64,000 bases of DNA from an uncultured Gammaproteobacteria bacterium (GCA_964640635.1 CAZXFD010000002.1:179115-243114); one strand, 5' to 3'. Shown: positions 9,889 through 62,286, counted from the stretch's first letter. The notes: generated from the letters alone by a model not told the origin. Program-made: numbers and translations.

Positions 9889-10422
9889 ATGCCTAAAATA
9901 ATCTACTCTAAAAGACGAACTCTATGCCTTGAAATAGGAAAAAACGCGGAACTTATCATAAGGGCGCCAAAGCGATTACCAGAGTCCCAAATTTACAAAT
10001 TTATTCAGAAAAAAAGTGCTTGGATAAAATCTCGCCAAGAAAAAAAATTGGCCGACATTTCAAAAGTCCAAGAACTCGCCTCTAAAATAGACATCAAAAT
10101 ATCAAAATCAGATGCTTACAATATTATCTCTCAAAGAACTAAGGAATTATCTTCTACTTATAACTTTATCTATAATACAATCAAAATAAATAATGCGCGA
10201 ACAAGATGGGGATCTTGTAGTGCAAAAAATAATATTAACTTTACAAAAAAAATTGCAATACTTCCCGAATCAGTTATGAATTATATTATTGTTCACGAAT
10301 TATCTCATACAATAGAAAAAAATCATTCTCGCAAATTTTGGACTCTTGTCCGAAATATACTACCAAATTATAAACAACAACAAAAATGGCTCAAAGAAAA
10401 TGGACATATACTAGAATTATAA
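9889..10422 (+). CDS. DUF45/YgjP-like (WLM/SprT-type) metal-dependent hydrolase
   Basis: HELSHTIEKNHSRKFW (HExxH...H) near the C-terminus, about 178 aa. The true start is probably ATG 9889 (MPKIIYSKRRT...); the upstream extension of the ORF-track call overlaps repeat A and a GC hairpin. Confidence 0.6.
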   Translation: MPKIIYSKRRTLCLEIGKNAELIIRAPKRLPESQIYKFIQKKSAWIKSRQEKKLADISKVQELASKIDIKISKSDAYNIISQRTKELSSTYNFIYNTIKINNARTRWGSCSAKNNINFTKKIAILPESVMNYIIVHELSHTIEKNHSRKFWTLVRNILPNYKQQQKWLKENGHILEL

Positions 10423-18135: not shown

Positions 18136-18167
18136 AAAAACATGGAATTAAAAAACCATGTTTTTTT
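18136..18167. terminator. Hairpin terminator between efp and the convergent transposase-like gene
   Basis: Stem aaaaacatgg/ccatgttttt with an 11-nt loop, flanked by an A-run and a T7 run. Confidence 0.6.
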
Positions 18168-18645
18168 GATCTAAAAATGTATATTTATATTCCTCTGGAG
18201 TATTTGATAGTTTATGTTTCACACAATTAAAATAAACATAATTAGTAATCACTCCTAATTGTTTTTCTATATTAATTTCTCTTGATTTATAGATATACTC
18301 AAACAATCTTCCCGATCTTTTATACTTATCATTAAAATATCTTGTATACGAATGGGCTAATAAACCTATGAATTTTGATATAACTGAGCCACGATATTGA
18401 TTAACTCCAACCCGGGGTTGACCATTCGGCAACCCCGGGTTGGGTTCCTGCAAAACAAAATGATAATGATTTGGTAATAAACAATATGCAATTATATTTA
18501 TACCAGTTTTATAGCTATAAAACCTTAACTTATCCAAAAAATACTCAAAATCTATATCCGAAGCAAAAATCACTTTTTTATCTATGCCTCTATTGTAAAT
18601 ATGATATAGCCCACCACAATATATGTTTCTTTGATTTTTATGCAT
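18148..18645 (-). CDS. IS200/IS605-family Y1 HUH transposase homologue (TnpA/RAYT-like), single ORF
   Basis: YHIYNRG..., HUH motif LPNHYHFVL, and C-terminal NYVYFNCVKHKL (catalytic Tyr region); 165 aa. It contains an in-frame GC-rich perfect inverted repeat at 18408..18443. Confidence 0.7.
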   Translation of the reverse strand: MHKNQRNIYCGGLYHIYNRGIDKKVIFASDIDFEYFLDKLRFYSYKTGINIIAYCLLPNHYHFVLQEPNPGLPNGQPRVGVNQYRGSVISKFIGLLAHSYTRYFNDKYKRSGRLFEYIYKSREINIEKQLGVITNYVYFNCVKHKLSNTPEEYKYTFLDQKNMVF

Positions 18646-29000: not shown

Positions 29001-32000
29001 TATTTGCTTTATCAACATTCGTAAACAACTCACAAGACTCTTGTGACGGAGAACAATCTTTTGCAGACCCTGAAATAAAATCTTTATTTTCTAGCCCTAC
29101 AATGCCAGAATTACTTTCAAGAATTTCAAAATAACTTGGATATTGTGAAAATGTTTGATAATTATTACACTCAGATGGACAAATATCTTCTTGAGATACT
29201 ATACCCGACACTATTTGATCCCCATTTTCAGGTTTATATGCCTCACAACCAAGATCGTCTTTGCTACAATATTTAGAATAATTAGCACAACTTACATCTG
29301 GATTTGCAGAATTACAATTATAATAACTTGGGGCTTTTTTCATATGCAAAATACCCTTTTCACCATAATTGTTATACATACTAGGAACACCCACTCCACT
29401 TGAAACATTAGATGCATCATAATTATTCAATTCAAATTGCACTGCATCTATGTAAACGTCTCCACTTACTGCAAATTTAATACTTGCGCCCGATGAATTA
29501 CCATTTACTCCAAAATATCCCGACTTCATTTCCCATTGAGATTCCCCACTAGAGTAATTTGCATCAGTATTAGTAATAGATTCCCCATTTAAAATCAAGC
29601 TTGGGGTAACACTTACCACATCACTCGATCTTAATTTTTTTACTCTATAACTAAGCGTATATAAACCTTTATTTAAAATATTAAAATCTGAATTACTTAT
29701 ATCCAATTTAAGAATACTGTCTCCTTTTGTATGTAGAATAGAGTACCTGCCATCAAAAGCTTCTGTAGTTGTTGTCATAAAATTTGGAGCATCCCATCCA
29801 TCTGGAATCATATCTTCGTTTTCATCTATTTCAAAACTTGGATTTGGAACAAGATTAAGTCCTGGAATAATTTCTATAAATTTTGAACATCCTTCATTAC
29901 CTTTATCACAAGATAATACATTTTTGTTGAAATAATTAAAGTCTGTTGTTGCCCAAACATAATTTCCTTCGGCATTTTTTGTTTTATATTTGGAATATTC
30001 TTTACATCCTGCTTCATCTGGTGGACAAGATTTTAGCGTATCTAGTATATAAGATTTTTCTTTGCCCGCATCATCTTTTAGAGCTACGCATCCTGCGGAT
30101 TTTTCATCACATTTTCTTCCTCTAAATTTCCATATATTTTTTTCTTTGAGACAATATCCATATCCCAAACAGTTTCCATTATCATCTTCTTTGAGACAAT
30201 TTTTTACATCCGCACAATCTTTGTATCTATTTGGTGACTCTGCTGACTCAAGAGCAGAATAGTATCCTTCTGAAGCACATTGTTGTTTTGGGGCTTTTAG
30301 AACCCAATTTGGATCTACAAGTCTACAGAATGGAGACTCGTCTTTTTCTTTCACAACACATCCTCCATATATCCACTCATGATAAAAAGTCTCTTCATAG
30401 CTATTATTACAAGTAGTTTCATTGTTCAAAGCAACTGCCGTTTCTATTTCTTTTGAAACAACGACGCCCTCACTATCGATATTATACTTCATACAATATC
30501 CTTGAGCATTTCCAGTCCCAACCCATTTTACATCAATAGTGGATGCATCCACCCCAAGCATTCCTGCAGCATTACAATTTGCAGCTGAGGTAATATTAAT
30601 ATTGTAAGGGGCGAGACTTACAGATCTATATCCACAATAATTGTCCTTTATGGTTTCATTACCCCTCTTAAAAGTTCCTGTTTTATCATATCCTTCCATG
30701 ACAGAAACTAGCTTACATCCCCTACTATCACATCCTGCTGGATAATTATCTGGGTTTAGTTTGGCTACTTTAAGGGCTGCAAATTCCCAACCCACAGGAA
30801 CAACTCTATTTTTTCTAAGTTTCTTTATGTTGTCATAAGAGTAGCCCTCATCAAGCATTGGTTGTCTAATCGAGGTGCCTATATCTATATAACCAATAAA
30901 TTTATTTCCATCTAAAAGATTTTCATCAATTGCTTCTTTGGTGGTAAGTGGTTCTGTTTCAGCACGTCTAAGCACGTCTGCAAATTTTGAGTCTATTGTT
31001 TTGTTGTTCATTTTTCCCATAAACTCATCACCCATATCCATTTCCATCTCAGCTATAAGATTTATATCTCGTGGATTAATATTCATAGAGATTCTGTTTA
31101 TAGTTGAAAAAATTTCATCAATTATACCCGTTTTACTGCCCACAAAAGATCCAGATCCATCTGCCAAATCTGCTTGTGGCGCTTTTTCTTTCATCAAATT
31201 TTGAATAAGTGTATTTAGGCCCTTACTTACAAGAGTATTTAAAAATATATTTGCCGAATCAACTAGAATATCCTCCGTTCTAAGTTTTGCAGCATCTTCA
31301 TTTCTTTTTTGGATATTAATAAGCTCTTGTTTTGTTAATTCTGCTGGAACTATTAAAGATTTAGTAATAAGGGACCTTTTACCTTTTGGAGAATCTCCTG
31401 CAGTTATATTTGCTACTGTATCAGCATCTGCTTTTTTTACCGCATCCTTAGCTGCCTGCACAGCATCTTGAACAAAATTTGTATCACTTTTTTGAAATGA
31501 AATAGTATCCTTCAAAAGTTCTGCCTGTAATTGCCTTCTTTGATCTGGAGTTAGTTTTGAATTTACAATTGAAGATGTAGGAATACCAAATTTTGAAAGA
31601 TCATATCCCGTAGTTTTTAATACATCCATCAAAGATGAATCATTTAAACTTATTATACTAAGCGGATTAGTAAGTTGAGTTGCAAAATCTCCCCATTTTT
31701 TCTTTAACTCGTCCAAAGAACATCTTGGCTTCATAGACGCTACATCCGTATCTTTCAAATTTAATTTCAAAGAAAGTGCCAAATTAATAGGTAAATCCAT
31801 TGTTGGTGGCTGACATATATTTATTCCATATCCTGAAGCCAAATTATCCAAAAACTCAGCACCAGCCGCTTCTCCTGCAAGTCTTGCTTCATCAACAATA
31901 AGTTTTGTAAACCACTGAGGCTTACCACCTGCATCTCCCGTTGCTATTTGAGTTGCTGCTTTGTATGCAAGCTGATTTGAAAAAGATTGAAATGCTCTCA

Positions 32001-32208
32001 TAAAAGCAACCGAGCCACCCTTGTTCCATAAATAAGTAGTAGCGCCAGATACTCTTTCCCAAACCCATTTACCAGCCTGCAAAACTGATTGAACAGGATC
32101 TGTAAATTGAGCATGTGCCTTTCGTGGAACAAAAAATGAAATATTAGCAGAAAAGAAAAAAACAAAAATCATTATTACTAAAGTTTGTTTTTTATTTTTT
32201 ATATTCAT
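23059..32208 (-). CDS. Giant (3049 aa) cysteine-rich protein with an N-terminal signal peptide and CBM4/9-like beta-sandwich modules
   Basis: N-terminal signal peptide (MNIKNKKQTLVIMIFVFFFSANISFFVPRKAHA). Very high Cys/Asn/Ser/Gly/Tyr content and a recurrent C-x4-6-G-C-x-x-[FY] motif (at least 9 copies, e.g. CDEKSAGCVAL, CSKDDLGCEAY, CNEKNVGCSAM). At least two segments start like CBM4/9 modules (NPSFEIDENEDMIPDGW, FEDFEPSGVFLGEVF). Confidence 0.6.
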   Translation of the reverse strand: MNIKNKKQTLVIMIFVFFFSANISFFVPRKAHAQFTDPVQSVLQAGKWVWERVSGATTYLWNKGGSVAFMRAFQSFSNQLAYKAATQIATGDAGGKPQWFTKLIVDEARLAGEAAGAEFLDNLASGYGINICQPPTMDLPINLALSLKLNLKDTDVASMKPRCSLDELKKKWGDFATQLTNPLSIISLNDSSLMDVLKTTGYDLSKFGIPTSSIVNSKLTPDQRRQLQAELLKDTISFQKSDTNFVQDAVQAAKDAVKKADADTVANITAGDSPKGKRSLITKSLIVPAELTKQELINIQKRNEDAAKLRTEDILVDSANIFLNTLVSKGLNTLIQNLMKEKAPQADLADGSGSFVGSKTGIIDEIFSTINRISMNINPRDINLIAEMEMDMGDEFMGKMNNKTIDSKFADVLRRAETEPLTTKEAIDENLLDGNKFIGYIDIGTSIRQPMLDEGYSYDNIKKLRKNRVVPVGWEFAALKVAKLNPDNYPAGCDSRGCKLVSVMEGYDKTGTFKRGNETIKDNYCGYRSVSLAPYNINITSAANCNAAGMLGVDASTIDVKWVGTGNAQGYCMKYNIDSEGVVVSKEIETAVALNNETTCNNSYEETFYHEWIYGGCVVKEKDESPFCRLVDPNWVLKAPKQQCASEGYYSALESAESPNRYKDCADVKNCLKEDDNGNCLGYGYCLKEKNIWKFRGRKCDEKSAGCVALKDDAGKEKSYILDTLKSCPPDEAGCKEYSKYKTKNAEGNYVWATTDFNYFNKNVLSCDKGNEGCSKFIEIIPGLNLVPNPSFEIDENEDMIPDGWDAPNFMTTTTEAFDGRYSILHTKGDSILKLDISNSDFNILNKGLYTLSYRVKKLRSSDVVSVTPSLILNGESITNTDANYSSGESQWEMKSGYFGVNGNSSGASIKFAVSGDVYIDAVQFELNNYDASNVSSGVGVPSMYNNYGEKGILHMKKAPSYYNCNSANPDVSCANYSKYCSKDDLGCEAYKPENGDQIVSGIVSQEDICPSECNNYQTFSQYPSYFEILESNSGIVGLENKDFISGSAKDCSPSQESCELFTNVDKANKGGEAREYYSYLRQCVKPSAVSSTIYYTWEGSDTSGFQLKTWRFLKSNKSEAPCTNVEIGATSTCSDIGLADVEGEGQCDPNTNLDCRTFYDKDAQPHNRLLSKTIPVTDSCIDLRREASDGSSVVYRAVPSMSTKCSATSVGCRRYKGNNGNNIRSVLFEDFEPSGVFLGEVFGGSKAPSNESTVYNGHSMVVYSSSGNTVSIEYNLTQNGETLIPGKRYTLDFWAKSSNDNNPNNNNHDTAQQKTKPAIEFLNLNPIKLFKAHALNVNNLDFGLMQLENNQEWLQYKYNWRDLETSASGDYILKFSITLPDDYKTFFIDNISLKEITSDFYKIKDSWVTPATCRGYLGCQKYSDRDNNPWYFHQFTNTCNEKNVGCSAMIDTQNSEMPFQQTYNAYCSNSSGGECSNGRTYYKNYSNINSGNFSSSTIVVSKDRLVYIIKERNNLCASSNKGCSAFGFKGDDGKYQDVYKINNPDNYIQDDYFGSSNKILCLSEFRDCSAFSVSGGGTIYKIHPRDKVCEYKEADASNGRAAGYYNVNDANISCEGSIYNENYNLLLSDISYIDSGIAPFGGYNNDYSVSCNSNQNKCSMFIDPTDSKDLSIEATNATHQQINFTNSGSWSSANWQNGQFENVSNLLASSVNNVLSFNISDKNTIIYKASKSNPFGFSVSENAVYRLSANVEFDGLTTDGKEYISTFLSCGPRGQDGAISYVEDSVVGGENNNPKGGVISGSIPYAFPFTKANYFIQESDNKSHQISGLYKILPGANYCNVAFYVKGKSGAVVKLKDIRFEKMEGNYYYIDNEELDKTSCSKASVKDGCVLFNNLSKSNLSSNALRSYENGSLVGINSNDPSYNNDSNELLKVVRDRECGEWDTCSSKIKTVDTEGQDKYSCVSLIGCNNLSSSGDCANYIPKNQNDKALNLEKYYSDLGSGSWSNMIYSGYSMPGAYAPHSLSTYKTTSSSMSTYNLGHIIKRGQYLYKDGISYTNPLSSIADTAGIINISSLKSCRLYPEKDSPFSWTPNNSMVLNYELNGAGSKYAIITGKDSAFANANISQPSYGALKPGESNVLNQGQSSDCSYRSVNYGMETLFYPYEGIDIPNTIETSNDGITTSTMKIKKIAKNMGWFGFCLDYDKSRFINTGYKTSYNDPSNLNYRCLSWYPVDAISGEVDSTSYAPQADIVSKLTEGATMCIVGNNYKTTEDRIYCLQTDASNQCIKLVLVPNDSMISANNIGSNTYWLTNYKTRSELNFDVQGQASIIVKDNALGGMFSGDQFGLTANANLSDSFDDIFVGSVSMPMLIYAYDIEFSNSTNIYLESCNGDWPDTPVCPTDTHQISYREWEGDHCGWTNMGHTRRMKSLSCNPRTYGYYINDSGVNPMPSRTGKCGKDCKYDPIESGDFSFGRGCLRNSSSTSVYATLVNQFGGQNTNPSGPRSFNVGLCKSQTPNEFDTSCDIVAHFEIINQLDNISHSCSIYRDPYSSTGIASYIYPSLESEIVRCFGNDINNYQDPRSPLLYNNVADCRSAEIPYSACRNIDGTRKCENRKNGCCPDGCQKNRMLPNSNNPNPLFDQDCLRFGNSDCNTCSIFNQSGTQSMLTSCANDKCLKSCKTSAILDGSVKFKANNFYLNTISIEKFTTATLPAIAIDGWREFCKDPLASDIFCPSMLSGSSSSYGISGFARNNKMILQVGPTNSASWVANSLHPSFGAAVGTSQDPIFVSGGFSSVFPGYYGNDIAQAKTNLGQLIVGIPNSNLKTFNGVEWLQDNSINWNVVGGENPVIRSVKSVSDGGGEGNEGFSINRNPAKDYVVVGKNNTNIDISFYAYAVPNQTPIREIKICWDSNSENGDCFTVAGPFKNRKPDCIRRCGVTYKQAFPSTSANTWGAECGENVLCPSGMQCFAKTWGDHEDACKEDIGDEKSYLTFSHLYSCSPMSDTWLDNCGNGRGCCKYTPYLQITDSWGKSKGTYMCGADTCSIKIYPQ

Positions 32209-32237: not shown

Positions 32238-32969
32238 TTATTGATTTTTTGATGCTTCTTCATTTAATGTCTGAATGTAAACACTTTGTATTTCTTCATC
32301 TGAAAACTTCGACAAGTCACTTTCGGTTGCACCTTGACTTATCAAAAGTTGTTTAATTTCTTGAATTGACAAGTTCTTTAATTTCTCTAATTCAGAAGAT
32401 GCAGTATTTGTATTTTCGATTTCACTACCAGATGGAGTAATTTGATCTATAATTTCTTGTGAATACCCAGCCTCAAGTAATTGTTTTTTTATATCATCAT
32501 AATTTATAGCTTCACCAAAAATACTTGAGCTAGCAGAAATTACAGATAAATTTGCAGACGCATTACAAGATAAAATATCTGTACAATTATTTCCCTTACC
32601 TAAAATTACTTCATCATAATCAGATATATCATTACTATTTGTATCCGCCAAATAAGGACTTGTTCCATAAATATTCATTTCATCGGTATCAGATAATCCA
32701 TCACCATCGGTATCCTTGAGACTGTTTAAGCCTTCTATAATATAGGACTTATCACTAAGAGATATTTGAGAGGAGACAAATGAATTTTTTATTCCATATA
32801 TCATTTTCCAAGAACCTAGTAAAATAGACATAATTCCTATAACAAAAATAATTTTTACCCCCACTGAGTCTCTAGAAAAATATTTAAAAATTTTAACCAA
32901 AAAACCATCTTTTATTTCAAGAATACTTTGATCATTTTCAGCATATCTTTGTTCTCTATCAAGACCCAT
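32238..32969 (-). CDS. Membrane-anchored protein with a thrombospondin type-3-like Ca-binding repeat; first gene of the giant-protein operon
   Basis: One TM helix (IIFVIGIMSILLGSW), DTDGDGLSDTDEMNIYGTSPYLADTNSNDISDYDE repeat, and an acidic C-terminus. It lies 30 nt upstream of the giant gene. Confidence 0.45.
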   Translation of the reverse strand: MGLDREQRYAENDQSILEIKDGFLVKIFKYFSRDSVGVKIIFVIGIMSILLGSWKMIYGIKNSFVSSQISLSDKSYIIEGLNSLKDTDGDGLSDTDEMNIYGTSPYLADTNSNDISDYDEVILGKGNNCTDILSCNASANLSVISASSSIFGEAINYDDIKKQLLEAGYSQEIIDQITPSGSEIENTNTASSELEKLKNLSIQEIKQLLISQGATESDLSKFSDEEIQSVYIQTLNEEASKNQ

Positions 32970-46078: not shown

Positions 46079-46213
46079 CAAATTCGTGTATTATTATCCT
46101 ACTTACATTCGTATATTTGCATCAATATTTGCATAATTAGTATACATTAGTATATTGGCATTGTAGTCATTCGTATAGTATAATAAAAGCAGTTATAAAC
46201 TAAATTTTTATCT

Positions 46214-47089
46214 ATGCAAAAAATTCAAAAAGTTGTAATTCCTGCCGCTGGATATGGAACAAGATTTCTACCAGCTACAAAAGCTCAGCCAAAAGAAATG
46301 CTTCCAATAGTTGATAAACCAATTATTCAATATGTTGTAGAAGAAGCTGTCGCCTCTGGAATTCAAGATATTGTCATAGTAACTGGATATAGTAAACGTG
46401 CAATAGAAGATCATTTTGATTACAATCATGAGCTAATGCACATGCTCAAAAAGCAGGGTAAAGAAAAACTTCGTGAAGAAATAAAAAAAATTGCTGATTT
46501 GGCAAATTTTGTTTATATAAGACAAAAGGGTCCTTATGGAAATGGAACTCCAATCCTTAATGCAAAAAGCATTGTAGGAAATGAACCATTTGCAGTAATG
46601 TGGGGAGATGAATTTATTGATGCGCGCCCACACAGACTCAAACAAATGATGGACGTCTATGACAAATATGGAGGCATTGTAATTTCTGGTCTTAGAATAA
46701 AAGACAAAAAAAATCTAAAAAGATACGGCATAGCTGATATTAAACCTGTTGAAAAAAATATCTATGAAATCAAAAATATTATAGAAAAACCCGATCCAAA
46801 GGAGGCTCCGTCAAATCTAGCTCTTCTTGGTGCCTATATTTTGCCACCTGAAATCTTTGAGGCCTTTTCTCATATCAAGCCTGGTCAAGGTGGAGAAATT
46901 TGGCTCGTTGACGCAATAAATTATCTCAAGAAAAAAGGTGTTCCACTTTATGCCTGCGAAGTGCAGAACGGAAAATACTACGACTGTGGAAATAAACTTG
47001 AATACCTGAAAACAAATATTGAATTCGGACTAAAACATCCTGAAGTATCAAAAGATCTAAAAAAATATCTTAAAACTTTAAAATTTTAA
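46214..47089 (+). CDS. galU: UTP--glucose-1-phosphate uridylyltransferase
   Basis: KVVIPAAGYGTRFLPATKAQPKEMLPIVDKPIIQY nucleotidyltransferase signature; 291 aa. Confidence 0.85.
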   Translation: MQKIQKVVIPAAGYGTRFLPATKAQPKEMLPIVDKPIIQYVVEEAVASGIQDIVIVTGYSKRAIEDHFDYNHELMHMLKKQGKEKLREEIKKIADLANFVYIRQKGPYGNGTPILNAKSIVGNEPFAVMWGDEFIDARPHRLKQMMDVYDKYGGIVISGLRIKDKKNLKRYGIADIKPVEKNIYEIKNIIEKPDPKEAPSNLALLGAYILPPEIFEAFSHIKPGQGGEIWLVDAINYLKKKGVPLYACEVQNGKYYDCGNKLEYLKTNIEFGLKHPEVSKDLKKYLKTLKF

Positions 47090-47155
47090 TAATAAATTTG
47101 CGTTTGTAATAAGGCATTCTTTTGCCTTTTCACTTTCGCCTTTACAACTAAACTT

Positions 47156-48529
47156 ATGAATTTTAAAAAAATTGCTATTTTGCTTATTCTTACATTATTT
47201 ATAAGCTCTGGGGCTTCTTGTAGCAAAACTACTACTACCGACAAAAATCTTTTTAAACCCATTACTATAACTATTTGGGCTGTTTATGAAAATGAGGATA
47301 GCTTTGCACAGGTATTTCAAGAATTTAAAAAACAACATCCAACTGTAAATTTTAGTTTCCGCGTTTTTGAAGCAGAAGAATATGAAAATCAATTACTAAA
47401 TGCTTGGGCAGACAATCGTGGTCCAGATATTTATTTTCTTCCCAACTCCTCTATTGGAAAATACTATGCAAAAGGAAGAATTACCCCTCTACCAGAAAAA
47501 ATCAAGCTTCCATATAGACAAGCGACAACAAGGGGTGTGGGAATGTTTTCAAAAACAGAAATTAAAGACTTTGTAAAAGAACAAAAAACTATTACTCCCG
47601 CTCAAATAAAAGACGCTTACGCAACAGTTGCTTACAATGATATTGTTATAAACAACAAAATATATGGACTTCCTCTCAGCATAGAAACATTAGCAATGTT
47701 TTATAATAGAGATATTACAAATGGAGCAAATATTGCAACCCCCCCTGTCAATTGGAACGACTTTGTGGAAAATGTAAAACAAATAACGCTCCTTGATGAA
47801 AAAAAGGTCTTTATCCAAAATGGAACAGCAATGGGTTCTACAAAAAACATAGACAATGGCTCTGATATAGCACTGCTTCTTATAAATCAAAATGGCATAA
47901 ACACCCTAGAAAATAATTCTTTCAATCTTGGAAAAACTCAAGAAGAAGTGCAAAAAACGCTAGAAGCTATCAAGTTCTTTAACGATTTTTCTAATCCTAT
48001 AATGGAAGTACACTCATGGGACGACACCTCAAAACAAGATGCCTTTAGTGCATTTACGTCCAAAAAACTTGCATACTATTTTGGCTATCCACACAAAATA
48101 AAAGAAATACCAAAAACTCTAAACTACGGAATAGCTCCCGTTCCTCAGATAAACAAAACTGCTCCCGCAAATATTGCAGACTATTGGGTAATGACAGTTT
48201 CTCATCAAACCAAAAATATAGATATTGCTTGGGGCTTCATTGACTTTATAAACAAAGCAGAAAATGCTAAAATATATCTAAGTAAAAGTGGAAAACCAAG
48301 CTCACTTAGATCTCTTATAGATTATCAAAAAGAAAAACAACCTGAACTTACTCCATTCCTAGATCAAATACTTACAGCAAGATCTTGGTACAAAGGAACC
48401 AATCCAGAATTCGCACAAAAACAACTAAGTAGCTTTATAGAACAACTCAAAATAGCAAAAGATCAAAAACAACAAATAGAATTTCTCAATACAGCATTAA
48501 TACAAATCAATCAAGATAAAGTAAATTAA
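47156..48529 (+). CDS. Extracellular solute-binding protein family 1 (sugar-type ABC SBP), probable lipoprotein or anchored protein
   Basis: Signal peptide ending LFISSGASCSK, 457 aa with an SBP-like composition. No permease or ATPase genes adjacent. Confidence 0.5.
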   Translation: MNFKKIAILLILTLFISSGASCSKTTTTDKNLFKPITITIWAVYENEDSFAQVFQEFKKQHPTVNFSFRVFEAEEYENQLLNAWADNRGPDIYFLPNSSIGKYYAKGRITPLPEKIKLPYRQATTRGVGMFSKTEIKDFVKEQKTITPAQIKDAYATVAYNDIVINNKIYGLPLSIETLAMFYNRDITNGANIATPPVNWNDFVENVKQITLLDEKKVFIQNGTAMGSTKNIDNGSDIALLLINQNGINTLENNSFNLGKTQEEVQKTLEAIKFFNDFSNPIMEVHSWDDTSKQDAFSAFTSKKLAYYFGYPHKIKEIPKTLNYGIAPVPQINKTAPANIADYWVMTVSHQTKNIDIAWGFIDFINKAENAKIYLSKSGKPSSLRSLIDYQKEKQPELTPFLDQILTARSWYKGTNPEFAQKQLSSFIEQLKIAKDQKQQIEFLNTALIQINQDKVN

Positions 48530-48576
48530 CCCAAGTTAGCTACGAAGCTTTCGTAGCTACGAAGCTAACAACTCAA

Positions 48577-49785
48577 ATGAAAAATAAAAAAAATAAATCC
48601 TTATTTAATTTACCCAAAATACTTCCTCTCATTATTTTCTTTCTTCTAATACTAAATGTGCCTACAAACAAAACCTTTGCCTGTGCATTTACTGAGGATT
48701 GTGATCCATGTCAAAAATGTTCATGGACTCTTTGTGTAAATAATGACGAAGACACAAGGTGCTCTACAATGTGTGAAAGAGGGGTGTGTGCAAAACAATG
48801 CGAAGGCACTTGTAAATCAGTTTGTGAAGTAGAAAATGGAGAAACACCCGGAGATCCTATCAATGATGGAGAATGTTTTGAAAATAGACAACTATCTCCT
48901 TCACTACATTGTTGTATGCCTAGTGGTACAACTCAAGTAGAAAACTGTAGTGGAACTTGTAAAAATATTTGTAACTACACCACGGAAACTCAGGACTCCA
49001 CTGGCACTTGCCTTGGTAGCAAAAAATGTTGTATCGCCAAAGTCAATGATGATACTGATACTGATATAGTAGACATAGGAGGGTTAATAGAGGATACGGA
49101 AATAAATACCGGACTAACAGCTCAATCAAATGCTACGCAAGGCGTCCTCTTTACAGGTGTAAGTTGTATTGAGAGTGGAAATTGTAGCGTAACAGATATG
49201 ATGAATACCGCTATAAACGTAACAACATTTTTACTAGGAATCATAGGAAGTGTAGCGTTATTATTCTTCATACTTGCTGGTTTCAAGTTGCTTACATCTC
49301 GTGGAAATGAACAAGCTATAAGTAGTGGCAAACAAATGATGGTTCAAACTGTTATAGGAATATTTATATTTTTCTCTGCATTTCTAATAATCGACTTTAC
49401 TAGAAAATCGTTATTAGAGCCTCGATATGCCACTCCACTTGGAAATCCATATGAAGCACCTGGGACACAAGAAGTAGCAGTGCCAGAAGCGACAGAAGAA
49501 ACAACAGAAGCAACAACAATCAACGCAGAAGCCGATTGTAATGATACAACCACTGGAAAAATACATTGGAGATGTGTAGGGAGGTTTGGGGCTGGATCTA
49601 GATGCAGACAATTGACGTCTGGCGCAAGTGATCTCGTAAGTGACGGAAAATGTACTAGGGCTGGATTATGTCCAGTACAAGGATCCGCTAGCTTAGTTGT
49701 ATATTGCTGCAAATCAGACGTAACATCAGGAACCGTATATAATGGTCCAAAAACATGTCCATGTACTGGAAATTGCGAATATTAA
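48577..49785 (+). CDS. Secreted Cys-rich protein with an embedded TrbC/VirB2-like two-helix pilin core (decorated pilin-like)
   Basis: Signal peptide, then about 200 aa containing 26 Cys (CAFTEDCDPCQKCSWTLC...). The core TFLLGIIGSVALLFFILAGFKLLTSRGNEQAISSGKQMMVQTVIGIFIFFSAFLII is homologous to the downstream pilin genes. A Pro/Thr/Glu linker and an about 110-aa C-terminal Cys-rich domain follow. Confidence 0.5.
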   Translation: MKNKKNKSLFNLPKILPLIIFFLLILNVPTNKTFACAFTEDCDPCQKCSWTLCVNNDEDTRCSTMCERGVCAKQCEGTCKSVCEVENGETPGDPINDGECFENRQLSPSLHCCMPSGTTQVENCSGTCKNICNYTTETQDSTGTCLGSKKCCIAKVNDDTDTDIVDIGGLIEDTEINTGLTAQSNATQGVLFTGVSCIESGNCSVTDMMNTAINVTTFLLGIIGSVALLFFILAGFKLLTSRGNEQAISSGKQMMVQTVIGIFIFFSAFLIIDFTRKSLLEPRYATPLGNPYEAPGTQEVAVPEATEETTEATTINAEADCNDTTTGKIHWRCVGRFGAGSRCRQLTSGASDLVSDGKCTRAGLCPVQGSASLVVYCCKSDVTSGTVYNGPKTCPCTGNCEY

Positions 49786-49834
49786 TAAAGCTCACTAAAA
49801 AAATAATACTAATTTAAAATAAACATTAATCTAT

Positions 49835-50173
49835 ATGAAACACTCCAAAATAAAAAAAATATCTACTGCAAGCATCTTTGTAATCACGACAATACTCACC
49901 ACCCAAATAACTAGTGCTCAACTAACAAATCCTATGAGGGCAAATAGTATACCAGAATTAGTAGGTCTTATCATAACGGCTATCTTAGGGATAGTAGGAT
50001 CTATTGCACTACTTATGTTTATCTATGGTGGATTTACATGGCTTACATCAGGTGGTGCTGAAAAGAAAATAAAAGAAGGAAGAGAAACACTTATCTGGTC
50101 TATTATGGGACTTGCTGTAATATTTGCAAGTTATGCCATACTCCGATTTGTTTTTGGAATATTAGCTTTATAA
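49835..50173 (+). CDS. TrbC/VirB2-like pilin family protein, paralogue 1
   Basis: Signal peptide (…ITSAQ), TM1, loop GGFTWLTSGGAEKKIKEG, TM2; 112 aa. Confidence 0.55.
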   Translation: MKHSKIKKISTASIFVITTILTTQITSAQLTNPMRANSIPELVGLIITAILGIVGSIALLMFIYGGFTWLTSGGAEKKIKEGRETLIWSIMGLAVIFASYAILRFVFGILAL

Positions 50174-50275
50174 TAACCTTTTATATTTACTATAAAAATA
50201 GTATAATTTATATATAATTTTAAATAAGAAAAAAATAATAATCTCCCTTTACTGGGAAAAGAAAGGAATCAACAA

Positions 50276-50683
50276 ATGACAAATTTAACAAAAAAGGTAG
50301 TAAGTTTTTCTCTAGTACTTCTTATCTCCTGTTTCATGGTGTTTGGAGTAAGTGCTCAAATAAATGAGGGTCTAGACTATGCAGAAGACATTGCTACTAA
50401 CGGAGATCTTGGAACAGCAAATAGTGAAACTGCAATATCTACAATAATAAATACAGTTTTAGGATTTTTGGGAATTATTGCTCTTGTAGTAATATTGCTC
50501 GGTGGGTTCAAATGGATGACATCAGGTGGAAATGATGAAAAAATCAAAAAAGCAAAAGGAACTCTTATGGCAGGAGTCACAGGACTTATTATTGTTCTTG
50601 CAGCTTATGTAATAGTTGGCTTTGTAGTTGATACAGCTCAAAACGCAACAACCGAAGGAACAGGAACATCAATAACCGAATAA
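50276..50683 (+). CDS. TrbC/VirB2-like pilin family protein, paralogue 2
   Basis: Signal peptide (…GVSAQ), variable segment, TM1, GGFKWMTSGGNDEKIKKAKG, TM2, Thr/Gly-rich tail; 135 aa. Confidence 0.55.
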   Translation: MTNLTKKVVSFSLVLLISCFMVFGVSAQINEGLDYAEDIATNGDLGTANSETAISTIINTVLGFLGIIALVVILLGGFKWMTSGGNDEKIKKAKGTLMAGVTGLIIVLAAYVIVGFVVDTAQNATTEGTGTSITE

Positions 50684-50826
50684 TTTAGATACTCTTATCC
50701 TCTCTTTGAGGGGATAAGTAATTTGAATTATACCCTGCGGGGAATAAACAATACACAATCACCAATAATCAGACAAATTCCAGCTTCCACTTCTTGAATT
50801 CTTGATTATTGATTATTGAGCATTAT

Positions 50827-50871
50827 CTGTCTCTCAACCCTGTCTTCGACTCCGAGATCGCTCAGACTCGA
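50827..50871 (+). repeat. Degenerate third copy of the 56-bp repeat (lacks the central palindrome)
   Basis: ccctgtcttcgactccgagatcgctcagactcga aligns to tcttcgactctgaga...gctcagactcga of copy A. It is flanked by ttgattattgattatt motifs at 50797 and 50905. Confidence 0.5.
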
Positions 50872-50960
50872 GGAAAGGTCTCTGGACCGAAGGGTAATTT
50901 AAGATTTGATTATTGATTATTCACGAAGTAACTTATTTAATTGATATTAAAATCAATCTA

Positions 50961-51434
50961 ATGAAAAACAAAAACAACAAAAACGTGCTCAGTAGATTTT
51001 TTATTTCATTGTTATTTTTACTAATAACAATTTTTAATTTCCAAATCGCAAACGCACAGGGAAATGTTACAGAAGTTAGAACTCCTGAAAAATATGGGCT
51101 AACAGAGGCTGCGACGCATGGGGGGTTAATCACAAACGATTCTGATAATCAAGATATTATATTGATAGTTTCAAATATAGTTGGCTATGCTCTTTATTTC
51201 ACTGGATCTATATTTTTTATATTAATTATTATTGCTGGATTTACTTGGATGACTGCAGGAGGCGAAGAAAAAAAAGTATCTAGCGCCAAGGGCAAGATAA
51301 AGGGTGCTATCATGGGCATAGTTGTAATTCTTTGCGCTTATATAATTACAACATTTGTATTTAATACATTAAAAGCAACCATAGAAACAGATGAACTTGC
51401 TCCTCCACCAGCGGACAACACAATAGCGCCATAA
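50961..51434 (+). CDS. TrbC/VirB2-like pilin family protein, paralogue 3
   Basis: Likely start is ATG 50961 (MKNKNNKNVLSRFF…ANAQ); the ORF-track start is a TTG. Core AGFTWMTAGGEEKKVSSAKG, TM2, Pro-rich tail. Confidence 0.5.
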   Translation: MKNKNNKNVLSRFFISLLFLLITIFNFQIANAQGNVTEVRTPEKYGLTEAATHGGLITNDSDNQDIILIVSNIVGYALYFTGSIFFILIIIAGFTWMTAGGEEKKVSSAKGKIKGAIMGIVVILCAYIITTFVFNTLKATIETDELAPPPADNTIAP

Positions 51435-51446
51435 AAAGAATCAAAT

Positions 51447-51833
51447 ATGACTAAACTACAAAAAATAAAATACTCCCTCCTAACTATTTTGAGTTTTTTT
51501 GTATCTCCTATTGTTCGCGGACAAAGTGCGATAGAAAATGCCTCTATCGATGCCCAAAATATGGCTGGCCTAATTGGGTATAAAAATACCAGCTCTCAGA
51601 ACATACTATTTTTAATAGGCACTATCATAAAATATACACTTAGCTTTATCGGTGTAATATTTTTAGCTCTTGTAATAATAAATGGCTTCAAATGGATGAC
51701 TGCAGGAGGAAATGAAGAAACTGTCAAAAAAGCAAGGTCTGCAATACTCGATCTAGTAAAGGGTCTTCTAGTAATTGCCCTAGCATACATTATTACAAGT
51801 CTTATTCCATTTATTATGCTCGCAATAGACTAA
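51447..51833 (+). CDS. TrbC/VirB2-like pilin family protein, paralogue 4
   Basis: Signal peptide (…VRGQS), core NGFKWMTAGGNEETVKKARS, two TM helices; 128 aa. Confidence 0.55.
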   Translation: MTKLQKIKYSLLTILSFFVSPIVRGQSAIENASIDAQNMAGLIGYKNTSSQNILFLIGTIIKYTLSFIGVIFLALVIINGFKWMTAGGNEETVKKARSAILDLVKGLLVIALAYIITSLIPFIMLAID

Positions 51834-51859
51834 TAAAACATAATTTATAAAATAAAAAA

Positions 51860-52258
51860 ATGATTCACAAAAAAATAAAATACTCCCTAGTATTAATTAT
51901 TTTTGCATGTTTAATTGTTGTCAATTCTGCAATTGCAACAACCACGCTCAATCTTAGTGATACAGGAACTGGAATAACCAATCTTGCAAATACAGCTGGA
52001 TACGAAACATATGGCGTAGATCCATACAGAACCATAGGAAATCTAATCAAGGTGGCATTATCCTTTTTGGGAATAATATTTTTAATTCTTGTTATACTCA
52101 GCGGTTTCCAATGGATGTCGGCGGGTGGGAATGAAGAAGCTATCAAAAAAGCAAAGGGAAGAATAAAAAATGCTACAATGGGACTTGTAATTATTTTAAT
52201 GGCATATGCACTTACTTATTTCATATTAGATATTTTATTAAGTCAAACAATTAAATAA
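51860..52258 (+). CDS. TrbC/VirB2-like pilin family protein, paralogue 5
   Basis: Signal peptide, core SGFQWMSAGGNEEAIKKAKGRIKNAT, two TM helices; 132 aa. Confidence 0.55.
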   Translation: MIHKKIKYSLVLIIFACLIVVNSAIATTTLNLSDTGTGITNLANTAGYETYGVDPYRTIGNLIKVALSFLGIIFLILVILSGFQWMSAGGNEEAIKKAKGRIKNATMGLVIILMAYALTYFILDILLSQTIK

Positions 52259-52262
52259 CACC

Positions 52263-52670
52263 ATGAAAATCAAAAAAACACTTATATCAATATCAATACT
52301 TACAATATACTTATTTTTTACCGTAATAACTATTGCCTTTGCAGAAGGAACATCCACAAAACAAAATATACTTGGCAACACAAAAAATGTTAGTGAAAAT
52401 GCTGGATATCTTAGTGCTAATGCAGACACTCTAACGGCAACAATAGCAAATACTGTAAAAATACTACTTTCTTTTTTGGGAATAATATTTTTACTTCTTG
52501 TCATAATTAGCGGTTTTCAGTGGATGACCGCAGGGGGAAATGAAGATGCTGTTAAAAAAGCGAGGACCAAAATAAAAAATGCTACGATAGGTCTTATAAT
52601 AATCGTCCTATCTTATTCTCTAACAGCCTTCATAGAGTTTGAAATAATAAAAAAAGCTCAAGGATTATAA
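52263..52670 (+). CDS. TrbC/VirB2-like pilin family protein, paralogue 6
   Basis: Signal peptide (…AFAEG), core SGFQWMTAGGNEDAVKKARTKIKNAT; 135 aa. Confidence 0.55.
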   Translation: MKIKKTLISISILTIYLFFTVITIAFAEGTSTKQNILGNTKNVSENAGYLSANADTLTATIANTVKILLSFLGIIFLLLVIISGFQWMTAGGNEDAVKKARTKIKNATIGLIIIVLSYSLTAFIEFEIIKKAQGL

Positions 52671-52684
52671 ACTAAAAAAATAAA

Positions 52685-53092
52685 ATGCTAAAAAACTTAA
52701 AAATATTTATATTAACGCTCTTGCTATCTTTCTGTTTTTACAACGGTACTTTCGCGGTAACTAATATAAACTCCGAAGAAAGAACTGATGCTTTTGCCGG
52801 ACAAGCCGGCTTACTTGCTCCATCTCACACTACTATTATTGAAAATATTGTAAAAGTATCGCTAAGTTTACTTGCCGTCGTATTTCTTATATTAATAATT
52901 TACTCCGGTTTTGAATGGATGACTGCGGGAGGAAGTGAAGAAAAGGTTAAAAAAGCAAAGGGAAGAATAAAAAATGCTACAATTGGAGTCATAATAGTAT
53001 TATTCTCATACATAATAACGAGTTTTATATTCAGCACCATTGAGTGTAGCACCACGGGTTGTAATGAGGGGGTTTGGAACTTTAATTTCTAA
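52685..53092 (+). CDS. TrbC/VirB2-like pilin family protein, paralogue 7 (C-terminal CSTTGC tail)
   Basis: Signal peptide (…GTFAV), core SGFEWMTAGGSEEKVKKAKGRIKNAT; 135 aa. Confidence 0.55.
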   Translation: MLKNLKIFILTLLLSFCFYNGTFAVTNINSEERTDAFAGQAGLLAPSHTTIIENIVKVSLSLLAVVFLILIIYSGFEWMTAGGSEEKVKKAKGRIKNATIGVIIVLFSYIITSFIFSTIECSTTGCNEGVWNFNF

Positions 53093-53117
53093 ACATACAA
53101 ATTAAATTTATAACAAA

Positions 53118-53145
53118 AATCGGATCATAGATCCGATTTTTGTTA
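53118..53145. terminator. Bidirectional hairpin terminator between the pilin array and the convergent isomerase gene
   Basis: aaaaatcggatcatagatccgattttt: stem atcggatc/gatccgat flanked by an A-run and a T-run. Confidence 0.6.
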
Positions 53146-53163
53146 TAAACAATGTTATACTAA

Positions 53164-54174
53164 TTATTCCTTCATTCTTATTTTCAAATAATCCACATAA
53201 GGATTTGGCTGGGGATCAATATTATTAAAATATGCTAAGTAAAATGATGCATATGAAGAAGCTCCCATTATATACATTGCCTCCTCGCATATATTTTTAC
53301 CCATTGGCTTTATTTCAATAAATTTAATTTTCTTTTTATTTAGAATTTCTTTCATTATTTCATATCGTTTTTGATTTCTTTTGTAATAACTATTTGAGCT
53401 TATTAAAACATATATAATTTGCTTGTTTAGCTCTACTGGATTGTTAAGTCCCTCAAATTGATGATGACAAATTTCAGGAATAGAAAAATATGCTGACATA
53501 TTCTTGCCAGTTTCATTGATTTGATTTTGAAAAATATGAGCATTGGCAATAAGATGCTCCGATGCAATAATAATAGGCATTTTACCGCTTATATTTTTTG
53601 CAATTTTCTCTGCAACTGCCTTTCCCTTAATAAAGATTTTTACTTCTTTTTCAAGTTTTGAAATACTATACTTCAAAAACCCTAATTTATTTAGCAAACA
53701 AATAAAAACCGCTATAGAATAACCCGCTGCAAATCTAGGATTTTTTGCATAATTATAAATAGGATCATAAACAAATTTAGTGGAGTCTGCTTTTGAAAGT
53801 TCGCCACCAGTACAAATTACAAAAGTTTTAAGTCTCTTTTTCTTAGCACTTTTAAAACAACTAATAGACTCCTCCGTTGTGCCAGAAAAACTTGATATCA
53901 CAACAAGTGTTTGCTTATCAATCCATGCTGGTAAATCATATTCATTTGAAATAATGAGTGGAACATTAATATATTTTGAAAAAACACTTCTTACAAAATG
54001 TGGCCCCAAAGCTGATCCACCCATTCCACAAACAATAATTTTATCAACCCCCTTAATTTTGCTTAAATCAACATTTTTAAACTCCTTAAAAATTTGCTCG
54101 AACTGTTTGTGAGAATTTTCATAAGTTTTAAAAACAAATCCCTTATCAAAGTCTTTTATCTTTTTTTGGTCCAT
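53164..54174 (-). CDS. SIS-domain bifunctional phosphoglucose/phosphomannose isomerase-type protein
   Basis: IIVCGMGGSALGPHFVRS SIS motif; 336 aa, the length typical of PGI/PMI-family proteins. Confidence 0.5.
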   Translation of the reverse strand: MDQKKIKDFDKGFVFKTYENSHKQFEQIFKEFKNVDLSKIKGVDKIIVCGMGGSALGPHFVRSVFSKYINVPLIISNEYDLPAWIDKQTLVVISSFSGTTEESISCFKSAKKKRLKTFVICTGGELSKADSTKFVYDPIYNYAKNPRFAAGYSIAVFICLLNKLGFLKYSISKLEKEVKIFIKGKAVAEKIAKNISGKMPIIIASEHLIANAHIFQNQINETGKNMSAYFSIPEICHHQFEGLNNPVELNKQIIYVLISSNSYYKRNQKRYEIMKEILNKKKIKFIEIKPMGKNICEEAMYIMGASSYASFYLAYFNNIDPQPNPYVDYLKIRMKE

Positions 54175-54274
54175 ATATTTACTTATTATTTGTTTTATAT
54201 TTATTCTATATTTATTATATCTTAAATGTTACTACAAATCTATTAAACAATTAGTCTATTATACAATTAACCTA

Positions 54275-55933
54275 TTATTTCCCCACTTCATTCAAATAAA
54301 TATACTTTATAGGCGACAACAATGTGTTTGTCTTGCGCTTATCAATTACCTTGTATCCACCAAGTTCTGAAAAAGAAATAATATATTTCATCTGATGATT
54401 TTTGGAAATTTGCTTTACATACCATGGTGCCCAGGTAGGAGTAAATTTTCCCAAAGACTCGCCTTCCGACAATCTATACAAATTCCACCCATCCCACTCA
54501 TATCCTGCTTCAATATCTTTGATATCAACACTTTGCAACAGTAATCTTCCCATATCCCACCTTGTCTTATTCCACACTAAATAATCTCTTGTTCCAATGA
54601 AAACAAAAATAATCTGAGTCAATAATAAAATGACAAATATTCTTTTTGAAAAATTCTGTTTTTCTATTATCAGAGCATATAGCAATATCAAAAATGGAAA
54701 TATAATAAGCAGATATCTATCAAAAGACATTATTGGCAAAATCAAAACTAAATATACAAGCAAAAAAATAAATATAAAAGCATTTTTCTTAACGTATTCA
54801 TAAACCACTCTTCTATTTTCAAACAAGTGTAATATATTAAATATTGATAAAATGACAAGAACAATATTGATAAAAAATAAATCTAGATTACCCAAATACG
54901 AGACTACATCTCCTTGCATTATACTCTTACTTGGCCCTATTCCATATAAATTTATAATATTTCCCATAATTGGAAATTGAAACTTCTTGTAAAATACAGC
55001 CAAAGCAAATCCCAACACTAAGGTAATTATTACAAGTAGATTTTTCCGAGATATTATTTTTTTAATGCTCTCTAAGTTAACAATACTTAGAGTTATGGGA
55101 ACAAAAAACAATGATAATAGCAATATATAATTTATGGCATTAAAAACAATTGTTCTTGGAATTAGTTCAATTGGAACAAAACGTGCTGAAACTTCTTGAG
55201 GCACGAATCCAAAATAATTGAATATATAATAAATACCCATTAACAAAACCAGACTTGGCGAAAATGCCAATAATACTTTTTTCTTATCAAATTTACGTGA
55301 AAAAAAGAAGCATAAAAATGCTATAGCTGGCAAAAATGCTATAAACTGTCTTGTAAAAATACCTAGTAGAGAAACAATGCTAGCTAAAAAAGCATGTTTA
55401 TAGCTTTGCTTATTGTATGACACTTGATACAAAAATATAGAAATAAGTAAAAACAAAAATGCTATCTGATCCCCCATAAACGTATATGACAAATAAAAAA
55501 ATATTGGATTAAACCATAAAAGAAGTGAAAACAAAAATGAATTTAGCTTTGAAATCTTGTTATATCTCAAAAATAAATAAAATATATATACGATTATAAA
55601 AGACACGACCAAATTTCCACTTCTTAAAACTGCAAAAGAAAATCCGAAGATAGACGACAAAATAACACCAAATATTATGGGAACATAATTAAAGGCGGAA
55701 AACCATGCTGGGTAAAACAATTCTTTGTTTAAGTTAAAATGATAAATAGACAAGCTCTGCGTCCAATCATCATTAAGCGGGAAATTGTAATCTGGGCTCA
55801 ATATAAGAAGTTCTAAAATAAAAATGACCGGAAAAAGCAGAAATATTCTATTTTTGAAAAAACTAAAAATCCGATTTAACATACAAAATTCGTTATTTTT
55901 TATATATATATTGTATAACCTATACCCCAACAT
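54275..55933 (-). CDS. Large polytopic membrane protein (552 aa), possibly an ArnT/PMT-like (GT39/GT83-type) glycosyltransferase
   Basis: At least 12 predicted TM helices with aromatic-rich loops. No diagnostic motif seen; the call is by architecture only. Confidence 0.25.
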   Translation of the reverse strand: MLGYRLYNIYIKNNEFCMLNRIFSFFKNRIFLLFPVIFILELLILSPDYNFPLNDDWTQSLSIYHFNLNKELFYPAWFSAFNYVPIIFGVILSSIFGFSFAVLRSGNLVVSFIIVYIFYLFLRYNKISKLNSFLFSLLLWFNPIFFYLSYTFMGDQIAFLFLLISIFLYQVSYNKQSYKHAFLASIVSLLGIFTRQFIAFLPAIAFLCFFFSRKFDKKKVLLAFSPSLVLLMGIYYIFNYFGFVPQEVSARFVPIELIPRTIVFNAINYILLLSLFFVPITLSIVNLESIKKIISRKNLLVIITLVLGFALAVFYKKFQFPIMGNIINLYGIGPSKSIMQGDVVSYLGNLDLFFINIVLVILSIFNILHLFENRRVVYEYVKKNAFIFIFLLVYLVLILPIMSFDRYLLIIFPFLILLYALIIEKQNFSKRIFVILLLTQIIFVFIGTRDYLVWNKTRWDMGRLLLQSVDIKDIEAGYEWDGWNLYRLSEGESLGKFTPTWAPWYVKQISKNHQMKYIISFSELGGYKVIDKRKTNTLLSPIKYIYLNEVGK

Positions 55934-57278: not shown

Positions 57279-57830
57279 TTATTTTCTATAATTCCTATCA
57301 TTTTCCCAGTTACTGGGATTATTTTGTATATATTTTCTACATTTCCATAAATCAAGGTCTGTACGCATTATGCGATCATAAAATCCTTGTTGCCAACGGA
57401 AACTATAATGTTTAAATTGTATATTTATTATTTTTTTACAGATTGATTTGTAAGATCTAATTATCGATGATAATGACCCTGATTTTGGAGAAATGTTAGA
57501 CATTTGCGCATTTCCGTAGAGACGTAGCATTGCTACGTCTCTACGTTGTTTAAATCTAATAGACATTATCAAATGTACGTGATTTGGCATTATAATAAAC
57601 GAATCTATTTTAATAAAACGGAAATGCGCATCTATTTGTTTTAAATACTGTTTTACAATATACCCCAACTCATTTAATATCATCTTTTCCTCTTTAATTT
57701 CACCGAACATATTTACCCTATCCTTTGTACAGATTGTGACAAAATAAAAACCGGGATTAGAATAATCCCAGCACTCTAGCCTTGTCGATTTAACCCTATA
57801 TTTATTTTTAAATAAGGCCTTATTTTTCAT
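57279..57830 (-). CDS. IS200/IS605-family Y1 HUH transposase homologue (RAYT-like), second and distinct paralogue
   Basis: FYFVTICT, HUH motif MPNHVHLIM, C-terminal SFRWQQGFYDRIMR...YIQNNP. It contains an in-frame 31-nt perfect palindrome at 57514..57544. Confidence 0.7.
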   Translation of the reverse strand: MKNKALFKNKYRVKSTRLECWDYSNPGFYFVTICTKDRVNMFGEIKEEKMILNELGYIVKQYLKQIDAHFRFIKIDSFIIMPNHVHLIMSIRFKQRRDVAMLRLYGNAQMSNISPKSGSLSSIIRSYKSICKKIINIQFKHYSFRWQQGFYDRIMRTDLDLWKCRKYIQNNPSNWENDRNYRK

Positions 57831-62204: not shown

Positions 62205-62286
62205 AATATTAGCTTCTTAGCCAGATAGCTTCGCAGCTTCTTAGCTAATGTTAATTATTATTTATATTATAACTCTTTTTAAATTA

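Follow-up and report, generated by a model that had tools for sequence, protein, structure and literature searches.

The gene considered here occupies positions 48577..49785 on the plus strand of a 64,000-nucleotide stretch of contig CAZXFD010000002.1 (the window). It encodes a large, cysteine-rich ("decorated") relative of the small VirB2-like pilins and is the first in an array of pilin genes. The assignment rests on the list of open reading frames (ORFs), on a Pfam match to PF18895 (32.9 bits) and on the recovery of an identical protein from independent assemblies.

Architecture of the decorated pilin

The ORF begins with ATG and specifies 402 residues plus a stop. The order of parts is a signal peptide, a 22-Cys N-terminal region (~170 residues), a two-helix PF18895 core, an acidic linker rich in Pro, Thr and Glu, and an 82-residue C-terminal domain with 10 Cys. 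An earlier account made from the DNA alone (the sequence-only reading) had recognised the same series of parts; its 26 Cys in ~200 residues are, on counting, 22 in ~170, and its C-terminal domain of ~110 residues measures 82 behind a 40-residue linker. In total the protein contains 32 Cys (7.96%; the window's other large ORFs have 0.79%, binomial P ~6e-22): 22 at residues 36–203, 10 at residues 321–400 and none at residues 204–320, the core and linker. Contigs of two independent sequencing runs encode an identical 402-residue product, as does one NCBI assembly, and relatives at 34–57% identity share both the layout and an invariant Cys framework.

All parts lie on the plus strand. Hydropathy defines a Sec-type signal peptide (residues 1–35; 48577..48681) with an MKNKKNK n-region, a hydrophobic h-region at residues 8–30 and a predicted end at ...KTFA|C. 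We considered anchoring as a lipoprotein via the first Cys and rule it out: the distance of this Cys from the A-x-A-like cleavage site differs among relatives. On the same ground we infer that cleavage by signal peptidase I (SPase I) is likelier than lipobox processing.

The N-terminal disulfide-rich ectodomain (residues 36–155; 48682..49041) is delimited by its 20 Cys, the framework of which is invariant in six relatives. It comprises a module A (8 Cys, residues 36–71) and two further modules, B1 (6 Cys, residues 75–113) and B2 (6 Cys, residues 124–152), which follow the pattern C-x3-C-x3-C-x12/16-C-x5/11-CC and, with an alignment score of z = 5.6 against shuffles, are copies of one 6-Cys module. 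Iron–sulphur binding by the CxxCxxC stretch appears unlikely because the domain is Sec-exported and the CxxCxxC spacing is not conserved in the relative P0006. An acidic Cys-free spacer follows (residues 156–196; 49042..49164), recognised from its composition; between relatives it differs in length and sequence, being gapped in their alignment, and its AlphaFold2 confidence (predicted local distance difference test, pLDDT) is <50. Residues 156–208 include 10 Asp+Glu and no Lys+Arg (isoelectric point 4.05).

Beyond the core, which is described below, the acidic Pro/Thr/Glu-rich linker (residues 281–320; 49417..49536) has 9 Asp+Glu, 1 Lys+Arg and 5 Pro, an isoelectric point of 4.05 and predicted disorder. 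It leads into the C-terminal disulfide-rich ectodomain (residues 321–402, 10 Cys; 49537..49782). The core of this domain is a second kind of 6-Cys module, C-x(8-12)-G[WY]xC ... C-x(3-5)-LCPG-x4-xCC, defined from 26 pilin tails; its end, ...KTCPCTGNCEY, is common to the relatives P0006, P0007 and P0012. The Cys-rich regions match no Pfam family at E ≤1 and have no significant NCBIfam or PDB sequence match.

The central segment (49165..49416), identified by Pfam, hhalign and AlphaFold2, consists of a juxtamembrane Cys pair (C197 and C203, in SCIxSGNCSV) and the VirB2-like core. The two Cys stand directly before the core and are invariant among relatives. PF18895 (T4SS_pilin) matches residues 209–273 at 32.9 bits against a gathering score of 26.6, in agreement with precomputed annotation. 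The related TrbC/VirB2 family PF04956 reaches 24.5 bits (E 3.2e-5), under its gathering score of 27.9, and the protein is thus not a scored member. A third family, NCBIfam NF045849, matches residues 217–273 with E 0.0029 and 17.3 bits, the cut-off being 40 bits. Profiles were compared as well: a profile of the decorated family aligns with one of the seven downstream pilins over 76 columns (residues 204–279) with a probability of 98.5% and E 3.6e-15. Because the two profiles align in this way the central segment is a true pilin core, as the sequence-only reading had proposed.

Within this segment hydropathy places two transmembrane (TM) helices, TM1 at about residues 215–237 (49219-49287) and TM2 at about residues 254–276 (49336-49404), joined by a basic loop seen in the sequence (residues 238–253; 49288-49335), KLLTSRGNEQAISSGK, with a net charge of +2. 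The loop named in the sequence-only reading, AGFKLLTSRGNEQAISSGK, is located at residues 234–252. AlphaFold2 predicts helices at residues 205–240 and 245–280 with pLDDT ~70–74; the full-length model, built from 8 sequences, is poor (mean pLDDT 47.6), the hairpin alone attaining the higher values. Foldseek with this poor model gave no match at E ≤0.001, only generic helical hairpins that include the A. pernix conjugation pilus (8dfu, E 2.2), and a PDB sequence search with the decorated pilin gave no match.

The predicted topology is that of a protein with cleaved signal peptide, both termini outside, the loop inside and oxidised ectodomains. Both Cys-rich regions are placed outside the cell, where the sequence-only reading had put them: one lies behind the signal peptide, the other behind TM2. 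The prediction of outward-facing, oxidised domains is made because their Cys counts are even (22 and 10), the core is free of Cys, the loop is basic, and candidate phyla radiation (CPR) bacteria are enriched in MdbA-like oxidoreductase and VKOR (PMC6744442). An even number of Cys is also found in 42 of 50 C-terminal tails of related decorated pilins.

The array, its relatives and the spread of decoration

Seven small pilin genes follow on the plus strand (49835-50173, 50276-50683, 50961-51434, 51447-51833, 51860-52258, 52263-52670 and 52685-53092), each with a Pfam score of 28–47 bits and identified also by positional orthology. Since all genes from 49835 to 53092 belong to PF18895, the decorated pilin heads an eight-gene tandem array. 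In the last small pilin (52685-53092) two Cys occur in the short C-terminal tail, ECSTTGCNEGVWNFNF, which may be a minimal disulfide loop akin to a rudimentary decoration.

Directly upstream of the decorated pilin is a gene for a solute-binding protein (SBP) of the SBP_bac_1 family (47156..48529, plus strand; Pfam PF01547), with a lipoprotein-like signal and weak NCBIfam similarity to GanS/MalE; among the ORFs scanned around it, none encodes an ABC permease or ATPase. The first gene of the cassette (46214..47089, plus strand) encodes a GalU-like NTP_transferase, as read from the precomputed PF00483 annotation of an identical gene in locus L001.

This arrangement was compared across nine loci: the window and eight from other genomes (L003, L005, L007, L008, L009, L010, L011 and L012). 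In all nine the order is GalU-like NTP_transferase, SBP_bac_1, decorated pilin, further pilins, and the SBP gene holds the same position; the exception concerns L007, where the contig ends inside the unannotated gene that lies upstream of the SBP gene. Orthologous arrays in all eight other genomes therefore begin with a decorated member. In the closer relatives the further pilins number exactly seven, and a convergent gene for phosphoglucose isomerase (PGI) usually comes next. In comparison with L007, all eight array members have their best hits on the diagonal; with L003 and L005, which are distant, this is true of positions 0–3 and 5. Because array members are positionally orthologous across genomes, the array is an old, fixed set of paralogues rather than a recent amplification, and fixed, distinct roles for the paralogues are to be preferred to simple antigenic variation. 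The comparisons show the gene to encode a modular VirB2-like pilin of the ultrasmall Patescibacteria, the fixed first member of an ancient eight-gene array.

Word-indexed searches of 5.8 billion proteins returned only about ten relatives of the full protein, one of which carries the annotation 'pilin [Patescibacteria group bacterium]'. Within the species collection the nearest genome is that of Candidatus Komeilibacteria bacterium S5_K13, to which the GalU, SBP and PGI proteins are 85%, 79% and 92% identical, versus 59% for the decorated pilin. Locus L009 (CAZWKI010000004.1) is labelled 'uncultured Gammaproteobacteria bacterium' and yet has the Patescibacteria-type cassette and gene order; the label of this metagenome-assembled genome is probably a binning or labelling error.

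The modules themselves vary in number and place. The S5_K13 decorated pilin is without the C-domain and ends 17 residues past a conserved RKSLLE motif after TM2. The first pilin of L009 (P0016) has two C-type modules N-terminal of the core and nothing C-terminal, and a C-type module is N-terminal also in P0044 and P0139. Ahead of the core there are 54 Cys in P0006, 80 in P0007 and 22 in the window protein. Nor is decoration confined to the first gene: the sixth array gene of L009 bears a Cys module too, and in distant genomes several members are large and decorated (L010, 10678-11421; L012, 11697-12548; L011, 6229-13838, with four large decorated pilins of 482, 677, 698 and 324 residues). The L012 example, a fourth gene, has faint matches to the Cys-rich EB and DUF7107 families. 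Across related genomes the decorations behave as cassettes that are acquired or lost, multiply, and pass from one exposed terminus to the other. Movement between termini is to be expected if both ends face the same side.

When 1.84 billion cluster representatives were searched exhaustively with the family profile as a hidden Markov model (HMM), 25,596 matched at E ≤0.001; they amount to the pilin superfamily. We classified 154 proteins: the best 150 of these matches and the relatives found earlier, a set skewed to decorated forms since the query profile included the decorations. Cys-rich regions lie on the N-terminal side only in 49 of the 154, on the C-terminal side only in 39 and on both sides in 11; 20 have 2–8 tandem pilin cores in one polypeptide, and 35 are plain pilins. 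The decorated pilin is accordingly no lone oddity: PF18895 pilins with Cys-rich N- or C-terminal decorations fill dozens of 50%-identity clusters, a distribution which, on the evidence of these matches, shows decoration to be a recurrent theme rather than a one-off. A profile of the C-type module, searched against the 5.8 billion proteins, found PF18895 proteins exclusively and no free secreted form.

The polypeptides with 2–8 tandem PF18895 cores ('poly-pilins') include P0014, P0018, P0019, P0025, P0031, P0037, P0039, P0040, P0043, P0123 and P0124, with eight cores in 820 residues in P0014. They imply that pilin cores are adjacent in the assembled state. The idea that they represent an ordered fusion of the eight array positions was examined and is unsupported: the cores resemble internal duplications, with no ordered mapping.

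Known systems and possible roles

Of described systems the closest are the arrays of VirB2-like pilins of Patescibacteria (Wang et al. 2023 Cell, PMC10633639; Quinonero-Coronel et al. 2025, PMC12102498). They share with the window the core family (PF18895), the tandem divergent paralogues and the phylum, the nearest genome to the window being one of Ca. Komeilibacteria. Quinonero-Coronel et al. report 441 arrays of 2–11 divergent genes and a pilin gene near virB4 in 1135 of 1948 assemblies (PMC12102498). In Southlakia epibionticum the array lies within an essential type IV secretion system (T4SS) cluster and is itself essential (PMC10633639); VirB2-like pilin arrays are essential in the sole Patescibacteria species tested genetically, in a role that is unknown (PMC10633639, PMC11665869). 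VirB2 and VirB5 are otherwise absent from Gram-positive-type T4SSs, the Patescibacteria pilins being a noted exception (PMC12857230). The published accounts treat the pilins as small, and no mention of Cys-rich ectodomains was found in them, whereas the window member is decorated; and unlike the Southlakia cluster, the window array is not beside T4SS genes but sits in the GalU-like/SBP/pilin cassette.

No description of Cys-rich decorated pilins was found in the literature searched, nor, there or in the Patescibacteria T4SS paper, of the GalU–SBP context of a pilin array. The sequence-only reading, which knew of no described counterpart, is supported in that no paper on such pilins was found; in sequence collections, however, many similar proteins occur, the decorated architecture being widespread in metagenomes.

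The classical pilins VirB2, TrbC and TraA (PF04956) likewise have a signal peptide, two helices, a short basic loop and both termini extracytoplasmic. They mature to ~70–80 residues without extra domains, whereas the window pilin adds ~290 residues and 32 Cys and has no VirB4–B11 genes near it. Tip adhesins of the VirB5/TraC type from Gram-negative T4SSs, minor pilus proteins that contact the target, are proposed as a functional analogue only: VirB5 is a soluble helical protein with no fusion to a pilin core and no sequence or fold relation to the window pilin, and no VirB5 homologue was detected in the window. In design there is a parallel with modular type IV pilins such as PilB and PilC of Streptococcus sanguinis, in which a module for polymerisation or anchoring is joined to an exposed functional module among plain paralogues; their fold and assembly machinery are unrelated, and the window pilin differs in having disulfide-rich mini-domains at both termini. 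The pilin-like conjugal transfer protein of Mycoplasma integrative conjugative elements (NF045849, Mbov_0395 family) is VirB2-like, from a wall-less/monoderm lineage and without decorations; the core match to it is weak, far under the 40-bit cut-off. The Pam pili recently described from CPR bacteria are an unrelated immunoglobulin-fold system.

The reading that we favour, though tentatively, is that the decorated pilin is a specialised minor member of a pilin assembly that displays disulfide-locked, fast-evolving modules outward, probably for recognition of a host surface, in place of VirB5-type adhesins. Its core would let it assemble together with its seven plain paralogues, whether what they form is a polymer or a membrane complex. 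In assembled F- and T-pili, as seen by cryo-electron microscopy, both termini face outward; with termini disposed as in VirB2, the modules would be displayed on the outer surface. There they would form a binding head, robust and quick to evolve, that engages the surface of the host cell; the bacterium is presumably host-dependent, and in classical systems VirB5 or other adhesins have this role. Because the protein is bulky, a minor, tip or base subunit is more probable than the main building block.

A positionally conserved array member with exchangeable, disulfide-locked surface modules is an obvious candidate for whatever makes contact with the host, and gives antibody, binding and structural work a defined target. 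It also shows that T4SS-type pilins, in common with type IV pilins, can be modular. That many arrays stand in a sugar-metabolism or solute-binding context and not beside a secretion machine bears on their status as T4SS pili.

Several points weigh against an adhesive pilus subunit. No adhesin or lectin domain is recognised by Pfam in the decorated pilin; the structural neighbour search with the C-domain found none and matched no known fold; and the AlphaFold2 model of the N-domain is unreliable, with pLDDT <50 over most of its length. Some 290 extra residues per subunit would be hard to fit in a homopolymer, and the place in the polymer (tip, base or sparse) is a guess. Pfam scans of the 64-kb window, which covered 50 of the 52 ORFs of ≥120 residues, found no VirB4, VirB6, VirD4 or other T4SS family, and two neighbours of no recognised family, rechecked at E ≤10 and against NCBIfam, gave no T4SS match. 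Finally, a PF18895 pilus has never been observed in any organism and is described in a review as a possibility (PMC12857230). That the protein is a tip or minor subunit presenting an adhesin, as the sequence-only reading suggested, is thus something we still only infer, no binding domain, known fold or pilus machinery having been tied to the gene.

The last two of these points – no T4SS genes in the window and no pilus ever seen – speak for the main alternative, a membrane-anchored display protein, in which the hairpin would be no more than a two-helix anchor. The protein would remain in the cytoplasmic membrane, singly or within a fixed complex of paralogues, and show its Cys-rich modules on the cell surface, with no extended pilus and with an array that may be independent of any T4SS. 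The constant linkage of the array to the GalU-like gene and to an orphan SBP lipoprotein fits this too, and the fixed number and order of genes, together with the polypeptides of 2–8 cores found elsewhere, suit a complex of defined composition. However, the Southlakia array lies inside an essential T4SS cluster (PMC10633639), virB4 is near a pilin gene in more than half of the assemblies surveyed (PMC12102498), the core is related to TrbC/VirB2, albeit below threshold, and VirB4 may be encoded in the genome outside the window. We consider such a membrane anchor somewhat unlikely.

A more far-reaching proposal, which we put forward as unlikely, is that the conserved cassette, from the GalU-like gene to the last pilin, encodes an undescribed, T4SS-independent surface organelle of Patescibacteria: a fixed heteromer of VirB2-like hairpins with, on its first subunit, an exchangeable disulfide-rich head through which the host would be recognised. 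It might work with the adjacent sugar-binding protein and with nearby GT-C-like and GT2 glycosyltransferases to capture or modify host-derived glycans. A heteromer of fixed composition is suggested by the conserved gene order of the array and by the fusion of as many as eight cores in polypeptides elsewhere.

Processing offers another route to function. VirB2, TrbC and TraA precursors are well established to be trimmed at one or both ends, and the flexible acidic spacers between the core and both decorations could permit the Cys-rich regions to be cleaved off, leaving a small normal pilin and setting free soluble peptides rich in disulfides, such as defensin-like toxins or signals to the host. 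The spacing of the B modules is like that of beta-defensins, and in P0007 one such module matches Defensin_beta_2 at 20.0 bits, below the cut-off of 22.2; this resemblance of the 6-Cys modules, sub-threshold and in one relative alone, is a lead only, and the window protein itself has no match to the beta-defensin-like family PF13841 at E ≤1. The variable spacers have no visible conserved cleavage motif, an invariant Cys pair stands right at the start of the core, and the C-type module was always on pilins in the search of 5.8 billion proteins. A processed precursor of this kind strikes us as very unlikely. An artefact – a chance ORF fusion through assembly or sequencing error, or a non-coding ORF – can be dismissed given the identical product in independent assemblies, the relatives that keep layout, Cys framework and synteny, and the above-threshold Pfam match, and the sequence-only reading was right to see neither a fusion of two ORFs nor a frameshift.

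Surroundings of the array and other features of the window

The usual neighbours of the cassette are a gene for phosphoglucose isomerase and one for a polytopic GT-C-like protein (DUF2079 or sub-threshold PMT_2) and/or a GT2; in the window the ORF at 54275-55933 matches PMT_2 at 19.5 bits (cut-off 26.1). This context (46214-55933 in the window; also L003, L005 and L007–L012) hints at a tie with the capture of sugars or with glycosylation of the Thr-rich tails on the pilins.

A promoter-like site with 11/12 matches lies at 46155-46184. The 47-nt spacer between the SBP and decorated pilin genes contains a stable hairpin (48535..48569, plus strand) built from two copies of the direct repeat AGCTACGAAGCT, with a fold of -16.3 kcal/mol (z = -4.5). 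It is missing in the close relative L008, where the spacer is 4 nt. The AGCTACGAAGCT motif is overrepresented (4 matches versus 0.11 expected), and two overlapping one-mismatch copies are found just downstream of the NrdD gene (62227-62246). The gap that separates the last pilin gene from the convergent PGI gene holds, by a consensus pattern match, a terminator-like hairpin of 20 pairs (53107..53150), scored in the scan on the minus strand only; its near-perfect palindromic stem may also end the array transcript.

Housekeeping genes of the window include those for tRNA synthetases, RNase J, NrdD, RuvC, EF-P and SSB. On the minus strand at 23059-32208 is a gene for a secreted giant of 3049 residues with 106 Cys (3.5%) and no Pfam family save a sub-threshold CBM_4_9. 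We looked for modules common to this protein and the pilin decorations and found none: the Cys regions are unrelated. The giant adjoins an unannotated 441-residue protein and a 975-residue protein (20056-22983, minus strand). In the latter, about seven TM segments lie N-terminally and a Walker A motif stands at residue 465; searches of Pfam, NCBIfam and PDB sequences gave no match even with permissive thresholds.

Two minus-strand ORFs (57279-57830 and 18148-18645) resemble IS200-like Y1 transposases, with whole-protein scores of 28.7 and 25.5 bits (cut-off 23) and no single matched stretch within the E-value limit. Bacterial TSP3-repeat proteins of the calcium-binding type are encoded at 32238-32969 (minus strand) and 10386-11162 (plus strand), one of them fused to a YkuD L,D-transpeptidase domain.

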